DNA of 64,000 nucleotides, taken from NCBI GenBank assembly GCA_964016885.1, contig OZ024741.1, forward strand, positions 273,296,001-273,360,000. Direction: 5' to 3'. Positions 50,316 to 63,558 of this stretch are shown one piece after another. This stretch comes from Eledone cirrhosa (taxonomy: Eukaryota). Position 1 is the first letter of the stretch, and each line of letters starts with the position of its first letter. A program made the position numbers and the translations under genes. The notes beneath the pieces were generated by a model, which did not search any database, was not told the DNA's origin, and worked only from the letters and a program-made list of their open reading frames with translations.

Positions 50316-50926
50316 GTCAGGTCACCAGTTGGTGCTACTGGTAACATGTATCCCAGTACAACCTGTCTCATGGTCGGGTCGTTGGCGACTAAACTGGCAA
50401 CCCCACCAAGGTTTCTTGGTGAGGAGGGTGACTTTGGACATCCTGCAGGACTAAAAACAAAACCTGTCAAAGGGCAAAGGAGCTCTTAAGAGTCAATGGC
50501 CATCCAAAATCACCGGGAGAGATGACCCCTTAGCCTTTGTCAAGGCAGAATTCTAGGAGAAGGAAAACTCTGATATAACACCTGCAACCCTGATGGTATC
50601 CAATGATGTTGACTTGTTCTTCTTTTTGGTAAATATCATCTTGGTTAAGAGAGTGGGACTGGCTTTGTGCAGTGCCTTTGCTCACTATAAAAGCTTCACG
50701 GCACAGGCATTGCTTTATATCTGGAGATCTCTCTGCACTTGTCGTCACATGGTACCATGGGCCCAGCACTATGTGTCAATAATTGTCACAAGTGTAGTGT
50801 TTGTACCAGAGTTTTCAAGTCACTGGCTGAGACTAAAAAGTCACACTCGTTCAGCGCATCGGTAGGGGTTCGCCTACATGGATATAAAGTAGTGGCCGTA
50901 CTCGAAAACGAGTTGGCAGTCACCAT
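50316..50926 (+). mobile_element. Bipartite RTE-derived SINE, copy 3 (longest 5' end)
   Basis: Near-identical to 25267-25867. Confidence 0.87.
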
Positions 50927-54900: not shown

Positions 54901-54909
<9 letters not shown>

Positions 54910-55438
54910 TAAACAAATAATGAATAAACAATTCCTTATATTAAACAAAAAAAGTTCATTATTTAACGATCGTTTCTAGGATATATATGTGTTATAATTG
55001 GTATGCATATTCAACAGATCTATGTACAAAATTATACAAAATTATACAAATTATCAAGATTAAATATACATACCAAACACATATATACGCCGTCTTCAGA
55101 GATTATTTCTGAAGACGGCGTATATATGTGTTTGGTATGTATATTTAATCTTGATAATTTGTATAATTTTGTATAATTTTGTACATAGATCTGTTGAATA
55201 TGCATACCAATTATAACACATATATATCCTAGAAACGATCGTTAAATAATGAACTTTTTTTGTTTAATATAAGGAATTGTTTATTCATTATTTGTTTAAT
55301 ATTTTATCTTGACTCTGTATACCGTTTATCTTTCACCGAAAGTGGTTTTTCATTACATCTCTTCTTTCCATGATATCCGGAATACATTGAGTTCTTCATA
55401 CGGATTGGACACTACCGTAAACTCTTGGTAGATTTATC
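54901..55438. mobile_element. Fold-back pLTR insert: palindrome with 200-bp arms
   Basis: Arms 54901-55100 and 55108-55307, 7-nt spacer; right arm continues 131 nt. Confidence 0.88.
55102..55250 (+). ncRNA. Type I HHR with 116-nt stem II hairpin
   Basis: attattt-CTGAAGA-[116 nt]-GAAA-c/gatc/g-TT-aaataat. Confidence 0.8.
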
Positions 55439-55999: not shown

Positions 56000-56670
56000 A
56001 TTTCGTTTCTGAATTTGGGAACGGATAAATGAACACTGGCGAGACCTTCAAGATAATAAAGAATCATCTGTACTCTACCAACATGCTAAGATAGAACACA
56101 AGGGTAAATTAGAGAACATAGAAATAAAAATAGAATCTACACACAAAAAAGATACAATGTTTAGACAAATTACAGGGGCAATAAACATAAAAGAATTACA
56201 ACCAAAATTAAATAGAAAATATGAGTGTAACAGCAACATCACAACTTACAATTAAGGACAAAATGAAAACACACACATAGAACAAACAACCAACCAATAA
56301 CATGTAAATAAATAAATAAATCAACAAATAGATAAATGAACATAAACACACACAGACACACGGATGTGGCGCATGCGCAAACTGAGCACACAACACACAC
56401 ACACAGAAACAAAATGGCGTAGGACAGAAGAAAGGAAAGGCACAGAAACAAAGAAAGGAATCCCCAGTCACTGAAGAGGTCACAGAGTGTGTGACGAAAG
56501 GACTATGACTATATATAAACAACTATCTGGTTGTGGAACCAACCAACCAACCAAACAGAAATTTATAAATTTGTAAATTTGTAAATTTATAAATATATAA
56601 TAAATTGAAGTGAAAGCAACTGGTGCGTGTGTTTCTTGTTGGCAACATGACCCTCCCAAAGTATAACAAT
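56000..56670 (+). mobile_element. Family A 3' fragment with short inverted cap, HHR 56466-56510
   Basis: Matches about 19026-19665; 56000-56017 is the reverse complement of end site B. Confidence 0.9.
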
Positions 56671-56905
56671 ATATGTATATATATATCTATATATGTATAT
56701 ATATATGTATATATATATGTATATCTATATCTATATATATGTATATATATATGTATATATATATCTATATATATATATGTATATATATATGTATATATAT
56801 ATGTATATATATATATATATCTATATATATATATGTATATATATATGTATATATATATGTATATATATATGTATATATGTATATATATATATGTATATAT
56901 ATATG

Positions 56906-56936
<31 letters not shown>

Positions 56937-57019
56937 GTATATATATATGTATATATATATATATATATATATGTATATGTATATATATGTATATATATAT
57001 GTATATATATATGTATATA

Positions 57020-57110
<91 letters not shown>

Positions 57111-57119
57111 GTATATATG

Positions 57120-57154
<35 letters not shown>

Positions 57155-57189
57155 GTATATATGTATATATATATATATGTATATATACA

Positions 57190-57863
57190 TAAGGACATGA
57201 TTTATGATATATTGCTCTGATTATTTAATTTATTAATTCTTCATAGAGCTTAAAAGAGACCGGTTGCAACGTATATATATCTATAACTTTATGTATATGT
57301 AAACCTTTATATTTAATAATCTCCCGTTAGGTTGAGATTCAATTTGGCGATATTTGGCTGCTCTTTCTAGCAGCAAGCCTACCCGCCGTAAGCAACCAAT
57401 CACATTCTTTCTATCTTGACCACAGCCACATAGCGATTCTTAGCCATTTTTTAATCTAATTTTGGCGCGATCGGGTTGAAAAACTAGGTGTCTGATTTTG
57501 AGTTTGTCTCCTGATGAATCCTAACTCATTCCTATTATTTGGATGTCTAAAAATACGGATGAAACCATGGTAGAGATATAATTACGGTATGTACGCATTT
57601 CTTCTAAGTTTAATTTTACACCTAATTGTGTATGGTTGATGATATATTTAGTCAGGTTCTACATGCTGTCGAAATGTTGGATAAATATTCGATTGGGGCC
57701 ACCGCGAAGAGGCCACCTTCGGTTATTTGTCGGAGATTTCTCCATAAGAGCCTTTCTTCTTATAGCTTGGTCTAATTGATTTTTTATATGGTAAATTATG
57801 CTAATTAGAAGAGGAAATAGTATATATTTTATCTGATAATTCTAAGGACATGATTTATGATAT
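57190..57863 (+). mobile_element. Retrozyme-like element: 653-bp monomer with 21-bp terminal direct repeat
   Basis: taaggacatgatttatgatat at 57190 and 57843; internal HHR; no long ORF. Confidence 0.8.
57506..57577 (+). ncRNA. Type I HHR
   Basis: gtctc-CTGATGA-atcc..ggat-GAAA-c/catg/g-TA-gagat. Confidence 0.88.
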
Positions 57864-57875
57864 GTATATATACAT

Positions 57876-58395
57876 TCACTGATGAGGGACTCATTTTATT
57901 ACATGTTATCCATGTGCTACCTGCAGTATTTTTCTCTATATTTTATTACATATATTTACCACTGCGATTCTGTGTTTTTTTCTCTCTCTCTTACTGTTCC
58001 CCCATTCTCTCTGTTTCTCCCCCTCTGTCATGTCAGTTAACTCTTCCTCACACTTTCACTCACTCACTGTTTCTCTCTCTTCTCTTCATTTCATCCTGTA
58101 CACCACGAAGGCTATTTTTCTCTCTCCGCTCATAGCCTTCGCTCGTGTCGGGTCTGTTCTAAAAGCGCTCATATATTCACCTAGCTTATGCTAAACAGAA
58201 TAATTTTTGAAGCTTGTTTCTTTCCCCTGGTTAGCCATACTCTTTGTTGTTCTCCTGTCTCACTCGCTTTACGCGTTTTAATTGTCCTAATAACTTATTT
58301 TGGTTATTATTGCACCGACGTGAGGTATATGATTTTTAATGCAATGAAATATCTATGATCTTCGGCAAATCACTGATGAGGGACTCATTTTATTA
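57876..58395 (+). mobile_element. 494-bp unit with 26-bp terminal direct repeat (retrozyme-like, HHR incomplete)
   Basis: tcactgatgagggactcattttatta at 57876 and 58370. Confidence 0.6.
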
Positions 58396-58399
58396 TATG

Positions 58400-58592: not shown

Positions 58593-58596
58593 TTAT

Positions 58597-58765
58597 ATTT
58601 CGTTTCTGAATTTGTTTAGCAAGATTCTTTATCTGAAATCGTGTGTTGAAACCGATATTGTTATACTTTGGGAGGGTCATGTTGCCAATAAGAAACACAC
58701 GCATGTGTGTTTCTTATTGGCATGCGTTTCTTATTGGCAACATGACCCTCCCAAAGTATAACAAT
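58597..58765. mobile_element. Family A fold-back mini-insert
   Basis: Minus arm ends at site B, plus arm ends at site A; short internal duplication at the junction. Confidence 0.88.
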
Positions 58766-58840
58766 ATATATTTATATATATATATATATGTATATATGTA
58801 TATATATATATATATATGTATATATATCTATATATCTATG

Positions 58841-59641: not shown

Positions 59642-59864
59642 GTATATATGTATAGATATATATATGTATATATATGTATATATATATATATGGATATAGA
59701 TAGGTAAATATACACGGGTGTGTATGATTGTGTATAGAAGATTATATTAATAAGAGGAATTCCAACTTTGTCTGATTTACTCGTTTTATTTACAATCCTT
59801 TAAAATATATATAATGGTATTATAATGAAATAGTATGATAGAATATTAAATTCTAAGTGTTAAT

Positions 59865-59903
59865 TGAACAAGTACTTTCATGCTTTCGCAATCTTCAGGT
59901 TCA
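59865..59903 (-). ncRNA. Minimal type I HHR
   Basis: tgaac-CTGAAGA-ttgc/gaaa/gcat-GAAA-g/ta/c-TT-gttca. Confidence 0.85.
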
Positions 59904-60280
59904 TGATATGTGGTGACAGACGAGTTTACAATTTTCAACTGTAATGATATGGGTAAATTTCGTACCTTTTATACATTTTATACAGAGAAAAGTGACTCCA
60001 GAATGCAAAGCCCTGTAAACTGTATTTCGACCAATCAGTGTGTAGTTTCACTGAATTACTACAGCTGATTGGTTTAAGCGTCACGGCTGGTTGAGCATGC
60101 TAACGACCAATAGTCATATCCAACATATCAATTGTTTTGCTTTTTGAAATGATGAAAATAGCATTTTCTATTAATCATCACCATCAACATCACTTTTATT
60201 ATTATTATTATTGTTGTTGTTGTTGTTGTTGTTAGTGGTCGTGGTCATAGTGGTAGTAGAAGTAATACCCCTAGGCGTTA

Positions 60281-63206
60281 TTATTGTTCATTTAGCTTGG
60301 GTTTGAATTTATCAATAAAATTATTTTCTTTGATTTTTCTCTTGATTTCACTTGGGCTGTGTAATTTGTAGAATGGGAATATTATAAATATTCCCTGACC
60401 ACATGTTGCCAGGTGGCCGCTTAGGGGTATCTGACGGACATTTGGGTCTCTGATTTGTTGACGGTGTACCCGTGCACGTTCCGATAGTGCATTTCCAGTT
60501 TGACCGACATATAGTTCTTCACAATTCGGGCATTTAATGCAGTAAATTAGATTTCTGCTTTTGCAGTTCATATTTGCATTTGGGAATATTTTTCAAGTTT
60601 TTGTTTTCATATATTGACCGGCGTGTATGGATTGACATGTGCCGCATCGATTATCATTGCATTTAGATACAGTGAATGATTGGTCTTTGTTGTTAAGGTC
60701 AAACTTTGCTTTTGTTAGCAATTGCTTCAAATTTTTTGGCTGTCTTTTACTAAGAGTCAAAGATCGATCTGTGATTAAGCCTTTTAATTCATTACTTTGA
60801 GCAATGATCGGTAGGTTTGCTTTGGCAGTGTTGAAGATATTCTGGTGACATGGGTTGTGTGTCATTATAAATGGTATGACCAGTTCTTGGTTTCTTCTTC
60901 CTTGGGTTGTTCTAAGTTGTTGTATAGGTATTTTTATAGCCCGCTGTATGCCATTTTCTATAAGTAGAGATGGGTATTTTTGTTTGAGCAAAAATTCTCT
61001 TAGTTCTGTTAGGCGTTTGTACCTGGTATTCGTATCTTCTACAATGGTACAAATTCTTCTGGCTAGGCAGTATGGGATGTTGCGTTTTGTATGAGGTGGA
61101 TGGCACGACTTAAAATTCAGATATTGATGGGTGTCTGTGTGTTTATAATATATATCCGTGGTAATGGTGGTGTCGTTTTTGATTATCATTATATCTAGGA
61201 ATGGTAATTTGGTCCTACTCATCTCTTTTGTGAATTGGAGAGATGGGTGTAGGTTATTCAGGAGGATATTGAACTCATCCAGAGTATCTAGAGATTCTGT
61301 CCAGATGGTGAAACAGTCGTCAAGGTATCTCTTCCAAGATTTTCAATGTACTTTCTAAAGTCAGTACTATATTTTTCCTCTATTTCTTGGTAGAGTTGTT
61401 GTTCTAAGTATCCCATTACAGAGTTCGCGTAAACGGGAGCAAACTTCGTTCCCATCGCTGTGCCTCTAATTTGGATGTAATTCTTTCCATTGAAGAAGAA
61501 AGTGTTGTTTTCCAGAATAAGTTTAACTGCGTCTAATATAAATGGCGCTGTGAATCTAATGGGAATCACTTCTCTATGTTTTTCCACCCAGTATTTAACC
61601 GCCTTTATTCCTAAATCATGTGTAATGTTGGTGTAAAGGCTTACCACATCAAAACTGAGTAGAAGTGAATTCGTTTCCGTGGTTTTAGGAAGATGGGACA
61701 GGAAGTCGATATCATCCCGGGTGAAATTGGTATGTGAATACATAGTGGTTTCAAAATAATGTCAACAAAATTGCTTAGACGGTGGGTGGGGCATGTTGGA
61801 CCAGCTATAATAGGTCTAAGTTTTAAGTCTTTTGGGTGTAATAATTTAATGTACTCACTGTTTTGTTCTCTTACTGCCAGTTGTATTTCTTTTGACTTGT
61901 GAACTTTCGGTAGGCCATACAGGTTGCTGGGTTTCGGCTCAAAATTGGTGATGTAGTCTCTTTCCTTATCGGTAAATGAGTTGTGGGATTTTGAAGCCAG
62001 GTTGTTGATCTTCTTCATGATGTTGTGGTCTATATTTGACGGTATTTCATGATAGAATGTTGTGTCTTTCAGTTGTTCCTCAACCAAATCCTTGTAGTAT
62101 TCAGTATCCATTATAACAACTGCACCCCCTTTATCTGCTTGTTTAATTATTATTGTTTTATCATTTTGTATACGTTTAAGTGCAGACATTTCTGATTTGT
62201 TAATGTTTGGCCTAACATTAGTATTATGTCTAAGAGGAAATTTAGACAGGATGTCAATGTATTGGTCGAGATAGATATTTCTTCCTTTTGCCGGAGTGAA
62301 ATTTGATTTATTCTTTACTAGTGATTCATCACTCTCATTATTTTTATCAGCGAAGAATTCTACAAGACGTAATTTTCGACAGAATTCTTGGGTATCCTCC
62401 TTCAGTTCTTGGTGGTTGACTGTTGGAGTCGGTGTGAATTTCAGTCCTTTTGACAGAATTTGCATTTCATCATTGTCAAGATCTCTTTTAGATAAATTAA
62501 TTATTTTATGATCTACGTGTACAGCTGTTTTGGGTATGTTTCCTCCTGGAGTTTTTCTTTTTCCGGTTTTTGTTGTCCTGACGTTAAAAAATGAATTTTT
62601 CTCTGTTCAGGATTTATATTCCTGTTGGTGTTCGCTTGATGAACTTTTGGTCGTGATATTATATTTGGTTTCGTTATGTATTTTGTCCTATTTTTGGTAT
62701 TCTGTATATTATTTTTCTTCCTGTTAGCATTATTTTTAACAATCTGGGAAAATGACCTAGGTTTGCTTTCAGGTTTAGATCGTTTTTTCGTCCAGTTTCT
62801 TGTGGGCAATCTCTGTTGAGATCTTGAGAGTGATCTGGTTATTCTACGTTTTGTTTCCACATTCCTTGTTGGTAGTCTCTGTTGAGATCTTGAGAATGAT
62901 CTCCTGGTTTTACTACTTCTCATGGTCTGGTCAAAGGAATACCTATCGTGTTTGTGCTTTTTGTTCATGTTGTGTGCGATAGGGTGTTTTTGTAGAAAAA
63001 GCGAAGAGTTATTACCGTAGTTCTTCTTTGATTCAAGGTAAGGTGAGTGTTTGTGTTGGCACGTGTTCTGGCGTATGTTGTGTTGATGAGTTTGTCCACT
63101 TTTAATGCTTTTTCTCAGGGTTCCAGAGTCTTTACCGTAATTTGCAGCATATTCATCGAGAAATAATTGTTTCTGCTGCCATACCTTTCTTGATTTGTTT
63201 TCTTCT
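60281..63206 (-). pseudogene. Frameshifted PLE polyprotein (basic N terminus, RT, GIY-YIG)
   Basis: [68 protein letters not shown]. Confidence 0.9.
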
Positions 63207-63243
63207 AGTTGAAAATTGCAAACTCGACTGTCACCACATATCA

Positions 63244-63282
63244 TGAACCTGAAGATTGCGAAAGCATGAAAGTACTTGTTCA
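63244..63282 (+). ncRNA. Minimal type I HHR (inverted pLTR copy)
   Basis: Same sequence as the HHR at 59865-59903, opposite orientation. Confidence 0.85.
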
Positions 63283-63558
63283 ATTAACACTTAGAATTTA
63301 ATATTCTATCATACTATTTCATTATAATACCATTATATATATTTTAAAGGATTGTAAATAAAACGAGTAAATCAGACAAAGTTGGAATTCCTCTTATTAA
63401 TATATATATATGTATATACATATATATATATATAAATATGTATGTATATATATATATATATGTATATACATATATATATATATATAAATATGTATGTATA
63501 TATATATGTATATGATAAAGAACACAAGAGCGTCTACAACATCAAACATTTTTAATTG

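Follow-up and report, generated by a model that had tools for sequence, protein, structure and literature searches.

Two kinds of described element invite comparison with the insert studied here, and papers are cited throughout for the sections that we compared. Animal non-LTR retrozymes (PMC7229834; 10.64898/2026.07.22.740005) are non-coding, multi-copy and low in GC (<50%), carry a type I hammerhead with a short palindromic helix III, and coexist with Penelope-like elements (PLEs). The invertebrate circles tested experimentally measure 170-400 nt (PMC7229834). A 2026 preprint survey gives retrozyme family lengths of 51-972 bp, with a mean of 650 bp in ray-finned fishes, describes solo monomers as frequent, and derives retrozymes from the pseudo-LTRs (pLTRs) of PLEs (10.64898/2026.07.22.740005).

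Endonuclease-bearing PLEs (PMC8557442, PMC3846280, PMC11167929) go into AT-rich or (TA)n targets as a unit with a 5'-truncated second unit, have a preferred 3' end downstream of the ribozyme, and form inverted joints; for coding PLEs, the footprint is given as a full unit preceded by a 5'-truncated unit (PMC8557442). The full PLE protein from Anolis cleaves AT-rich DNA and begins cDNA synthesis at fixed internal positions in a stem-loop downstream of the ribozyme; its template can be linear RNA that has not been processed, homology to the target is not needed, and mutating the ribozyme leaves insertion unchanged (PMC11167929). This internal initiation in vitro and the circle model (PMC4209133, PMC7229834) are competing accounts. 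Non-autonomous PLE pairs target microsatellites (PMC9977147), as does the Chlamys clade, whose non-autonomous members, such as MRC1, are non-coding PLE parasites with pLTRs and head-to-tail copies (PMC8557442).

Here, we describe the insert at 57190-57863 of a 64-kb window (the whole stretch of DNA analysed) and assess how it may have arisen. In our judgement it is probably one solo member of an abundant family that is non-coding and has a predicted type I hammerhead. The family is likely derived from PLEs as a non-autonomous element of the non-LTR retrozyme type, and a PLE reverse transcriptase-endonuclease supplied in trans likely placed this copy in a TA microsatellite. The features of the insert and its surroundings are as follows.

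56669..57189, no strand: (TA)n-type microsatellite, left flank, about 520 nt, inferred target
57190..57842, plus strand: 653-nt unit of an abundant repeat family, non-coding, GC 34% (from repeat spacing, run alignments and an ORF check)
57190..57210, plus strand: 5' copy of the 21-nt redundancy, likely the 5'-truncated start of a second unit and thus a very short pLTR
57505..57578, plus strand: type I hammerhead motif by descriptor match, predicted cut 57572/57573
57587..57651, plus strand: weak candidate for a spliceosomal intron of 65 nt, with donor-like GTATGT at 57587, branch-like CTAAT at 57622 and AG at 57650-57651 (by comparison with the splice consensus)
57786..57863, plus strand: predicted long stem-loop whose base is the insert's 3' end (fold prediction, pair probabilities about 0.5-0.7), candidate start signal for reverse transcription
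57843..57863, plus strand: 3' copy of the 21-nt redundancy and 3' end of the insert, ending in an AT run 291 nt past the predicted cut
57864..57875, no strand: TA-like spacer, right flank, 12 nt
57876..58395, plus strand: neighbouring insert, unrelated but of the same build, with a 494-nt unit and a 26-nt redundancy; abundant family

The insertion comprises 674 bases and carries an exact 21-nt direct repeat at 57190-57210 and 57843-57863, with a period of 653. The repeat cannot be extended on either side, no third copy with up to four mismatches is present in the 64-kb window, and the chance expectation of such 21-nt pairs in 1.2 kb is ~2e-6. These results bear out an earlier note on this DNA, which had described a 653-nt monomer with a 21-nt terminal redundancy, that is, a copy of slightly more than one unit ending at an AT-rich junction; the repeat at 57843-57863 does border TA-like sequence. 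That note had also placed TA runs on both flanks, which applies to the left (about 520 nt of TA) but not to the right, where 12 nt of TA-like sequence lead into the second insert and the next TA tract begins only after it. The 3' end itself falls within an ATATAT run, and further AT runs occur in the unit at 57272, 57642, and 57821. A CCAAT box is located at 57396. When circularly permuted, the unit is predicted to fold better than shuffled sequence (z -3.6, 25 shuffles).

The unit has no long ORF, as had been noted: the longest that starts with ATG is 47 codons, with the unit junction included, and all three frames are closed by at least seven stops on both sides of the ribozyme. Searching the unit with eight PLE protein pieces from the window (tblastn) gave nothing better than E 0.46, and the 57190-57863 copy contains neither an RT plus GIY-YIG ORF nor a remnant of one.

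The hammerhead core consists of CTGATGA (57511-57517) and GAAA (57561-57564), with the predicted cut after GUA at 57572. Helix I pairs 57505-57510 with 57573-57578 (6 bp, possibly extended by another 4 bp), helix II has 4 bp closing a 35-nt loop, and helix III has 2 bp with a palindromic CATG loop. These helix sizes agree with the "canonical" type I motif of metazoans and not with the minimal motif of PLEs, as the two are set out in the sections of PMC4209133 compared. Our descriptor followed the hammerhead consensus; its strict form was matched by one of 20,000 dinucleotide shuffles and its loose form by 15 of 20,000. An intact hammerhead had been reported mid-unit, and the core letters are complete; the helices are less so, given that helix II opens with an A-U pair in place of the conserved G-C and that the active fold is predicted at -6.1 kcal/mol versus -12.8 kcal/mol for the best fold, ~6.7 above the minimum. 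On the predicted fold, these two properties would speak against an efficient monomeric ribozyme. In about one-quarter of the family records, ribozyme loop 2 has five extra letters that, by eye, would lengthen a hairpin there; the 57190-57863 copy may therefore be a slightly degraded variant.

An Rfam search returned no match at the gathering score and 37 matches by E-value, nearly all of them microsatellite artefacts and none a hammerhead. Two scans of prokaryote genomes gave 0 and 0 loci. A metagenome scan with the ribozyme pattern gave three loci with only 14-15 matching bases each, and viral scans gave 0 loci and then four with matches of 18-22 bases, of which the longest lies within a 783-aa ORF; we took all of these as chance matches.

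Set beside the animal non-LTR retrozymes (PMC7229834; 10.64898/2026.07.22.740005), the unit agrees in being non-coding, multi-copy and low in GC (34%), and in its type I hammerhead, short palindromic helix III and coexisting PLEs. It differs in the 35-nt loop 2 and the A-U closing pair of helix II. The label "large animal retrozyme" given to it earlier is apt for a non-coding, hammerhead-bearing, retrozyme-like family; the unit is longer than the 170-400 nt circles (PMC7229834), but "large" does not hold against the 51-972 bp of the survey (10.64898/2026.07.22.740005). With endonuclease-bearing PLEs, the family shares the unit with a likely 5'-truncated second unit, an apparently preferred 3' end downstream of the ribozyme, a probable (TA)n target and inverted joints; unlike them, the unit has no ORF, its ribozyme has canonical helix sizes, and no autonomous partner was found in the window. 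The Chlamys PLEs resemble it in the points given above but are green-algal, have (CA)n or (C)n targets and show similarity to a known autonomous partner (PMC8557442). The plant-type LTR retrozyme, with type III hammerheads in two LTRs and a 4-bp target-site duplication, does not match the single type I motif and the 21-nt redundancy without a ribozyme.

The window is a stretch of eukaryotic DNA in which inserts interrupt long TA tracts, and coding PLEs with RT and/or GIY-YIG domains lie in these tracts at 17369-19723, 36408-38853, 42595-44818, and 59703-63399. The first of these was identified by eye from the translated sequence, as Pfam gave no match to it. Three of the four have hammerhead-like motifs at their 3' ends (read by eye), and three of the window's PLEs have a Cys-rich linker between the RT and GIY-YIG domains, a trait given for the Neptune and Nematis clades (PMC8557442). 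PLE 36408-38853 is 5'-truncated and retains an uninterrupted 751-codon RT plus GIY-YIG frame, with 1,068 relatives in a set of 7,628 candidates. For one PLE protein, named relatives are few and come from assemblies of bivalve gill symbionts; we took these as host carry-over, which would suggest a marine invertebrate host. One of these PLEs, and an insert that resembles ours in build, are listed below.

59703-63399, minus strand: near-complete PLE interrupted by frameshifts and a stop; each arm of its 193-nt inverted terminal repeat carries a hammerhead-like motif
26468-27198, no strand given: third non-coding insert in TA, a 520-nt unit plus a direct repeat of about 210 nt (99.5% alike)

The third insert has a hammerhead-like motif at 26903-26982, and its predicted circular fold has a z of -4.0. 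The neighbour at 57876-58395 contains GAAA...TA, a short hairpin and CTGATGA in type II hammerhead order; we did not accept a type II hammerhead there, by eye, with helix II unpaired in that copy. Both inserts share their build with the 653-nt unit and have no sequence resemblance to it. Searching the masked window with the unit (blastn and nhmmer) gave no relative among the matches listed, and no autonomous partner with sequence similarity to the unit was found in the window. As separate observations, the hammerhead-like motif at 44657-44770, at a coding PLE's 3' end, has by eye an unusually long helix II region of ~85 nt, and truncated, inverted 3' ends of one PLE family, with a common terminus, are found at 19025-19723, 44905-45220, 56002-56668, and 58593-58772.

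To describe the family, we compared 57184-58398, which includes both neighbouring units, with public sequencing runs. The alignment, at 80% likeness, covered four of nine DNA-type or unlabelled runs (X1, X2, X6, and X7), of which X1 and X2 are one sample with contigs as records and X7 consists of RAD reads. The two units together drew 3,393 of the 16.5 million X1 contigs, 3,204 of the 16.3 million X2 contigs, and 6,612 of the 12.5 million X7 reads, counts that show abundance and from which no copy number can be derived. The matches cover all 30 bins, and most X1 and X2 records are 90-99% alike. X6 yielded 11 contigs, 10 of them fitting only in part, too few to name a relative; X4, X5, and X6 have a small share of matching words only. 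The 653-nt unit is one member of an abundant, diversified family, from whose majority the 57190-57863 copy departs at many places among the best 40 of 385 differences (loose ends were read from the best 24 of 803 and indels from the best 12 of 42). Of the 13 listed differences in the 3' part, three break a predicted pair, among them a near-fixed difference in the predicted terminal stem-loop (57786-57863), four keep the pair, and six fall on unpaired bases; no compensatory change is among them.

Other copies run from unit end into unit start. In X2, four contigs that start at 57193 carry unaligned 5' letters in agreement with the last part of the unit (19 of 23 against 57823-57845, by eye), and another contig returns from 57818 to 57201 via 37 junction-like letters that are about 23/35 alike (by eye). 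Three X7 reads extend beyond 57863 with ATT, the three letters that come next in the unit. The 21-mer is thus not missing from other copies, on the evidence of this continuity in 4 + 1 contigs and three reads. A joint that goes back 653 was not among the joints listed for the unit, versus 191 reads from 14 starts for the head-to-tail joint of the 494-nt neighbour; AATT and CATG sites beside the junction may remove RAD fragments that bear the 653-back joint. The contigs are short, and none in X1 or X2 spans the whole unit.

The same records also point to a common 3' end. At 57864, A is found in 47 and 49 contigs (>99% of depth) and in 220 of 222 reads from about 59 starts. Taken alone, this A is ambiguous because it is also the unit's own next base, and the reads that align further are pure TA (21/22 at 57873, 19/19 at 57876, and 18/20 at 57877). 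Contigs running on into unlike sequence have a share of 0 in X1 and X2. Many copies likely end at the same 3' point into (TA)n. Differently permuted copies, proposed as a check in the earlier note, did not emerge among the best-supported rows, which point instead to a shared 3' end.

The preferred origin starts from the template. Because the ribozyme site is intact mid-copy and the insert's own end is repeated at its start, a template continuous for more than one unit is needed; a circle, or a transcript of a tandem or partial-tandem source, would each supply it. Source copies of more than one unit would be transcribed into multi-unit RNA, either a linear multimer or, after cleavage and ligation, a circle. 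A PLE protein would then nick (TA)n and begin cDNA synthesis from a preferred internal position about 290 nt beyond the ribozyme, where the predicted stem-loop has its base and an AT run lies alongside. Synthesis would proceed through an uncut or religated ribozyme site and stop 21 nt into the second unit, as in ordinary PLE 5' truncation. Because the 57190-57863 copy has one ribozyme and its palindromic helix III is weak, it would release no monomer of its own; it is probably unable to excise unit-length RNA alone and likely a dead end.

Whether the template was a circle is a narrower question. In this sub-case of PLE insertion, which differs in the template alone, AT microhomology would prime synthesis on a ligated 653-nt circular RNA and the enzyme would copy slightly more than one lap; we consider it possible but not probable. 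The intact mid-copy ribozyme site, the redundant ends and the 3' end within an ATATAT run are what such a lap would leave, the unit closes on itself in other copies and has a stable predicted circular fold, and there is precedent in the model proposed in PMC4209133 and in the circles shown for coral, mussel, and axolotl retrozymes (PMC7229834). However, a linear multimer yields the same product, and the AT runs at 57272, 57642, and 57821 are not seen as 3' ends among the best-supported rows. Since ordinary PLE insertions also leave one unit with a short overlap, that structure is not by itself evidence of circular RNA, and since the PLE enzyme starts internally in vitro on uncut linear RNA, with no need of target homology or a working ribozyme (PMC11167929), a circular template is possible yet unneeded.

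Alternatively, the insert could be a solo pLTR or a gutted coding PLE, comprising 3' UTR, promoter, ribozyme and 5' UTR with the ORF missing, and thus a by-product rather than a self-propagating family. The order of CCAAT box (57396), ribozyme, intron-like stretch and 3' end does resemble a PLE pLTR (PMC8557442, PMC3846280), many truncated PLE ends lie in the window, and the opposite-strand joint 57199/57588 that we found in X1 and X2 is of the inversion type made by PLEs. Yet the closing of every frame on each side of the ribozyme leaves no coding trace, and the high depth over the whole unit, together with the junction in divergent copies, argues that the closed form itself has multiplied. 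No loose end leads into ORF-like sequence among the best 24 of 803, a comparison to which the short contigs lend little power; we think this reading unlikely, though an ORF-linked minority could lie outside those 24.

Very unlikely, in our view, is a satellite-type tandem repeat dispersed at the DNA level, by an excised circle or by recombination, with the ribozyme as a relic. The family is high-copy and head-to-tail continuous, and a DNA circle would likewise give one unit plus overlap, but PLE-driven insertion better accounts for an apparently shared 3' end in (TA)n, for the conserved ribozyme core, and for three same-build inserts among PLE copies in one window. Finally, a target-site duplication around a 632-nt insert, which the two identical flanking 21-mers might suggest and which had already been rated the lesser option, is so improbable that we set it aside: in other copies the 21-mer lies between the end of the unit and its start, so it is element sequence.

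As a likely non-autonomous PLE derivative, the family is a further example of a known element class, the animal retrozyme kind, and it may already be catalogued in Repbase or Dfam. Neither its size nor its monomer state is new, since the survey gives lengths that include it and frequent solo monomers (10.64898/2026.07.22.740005). Being abundant, non-coding and apparently fixed in its 3' start, the family is nevertheless a test case for whether PLEs copy circles or linear multimers in vivo. More speculatively, and with considerable doubt, the three units in the 64-kb window could represent a guild: non-coding RNA circles of 490-650 nt, unrelated to one another, each of which borrows PLE enzymes of the Neptune/Nematis type via a stem-loop start signal at a fixed distance from the ribozyme. 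If this were true, the literature compared would contain no invertebrate retrozyme circle larger than the 653-nt unit, and comparison of the families would define the minimal signal for PLE mobilisation of any RNA into (TA)n.

Several other inserts were observed in the window. Another non-coding insert occurs in TA tracts as three copies that are ~97% alike (25268-25881, 27740-28121, and 50319-50923), a short hammerhead-bearing insert with an inverted 129-nt copy lies at 45268-45763, and a 401-nt near-perfect palindrome is found within a TA tract at 54904-55304. The window also contains a broken hAT transposase (5159-6918, minus strand) and an AP-endonuclease/RT LINE with C2H2 fingers (32058-35691, plus strand).
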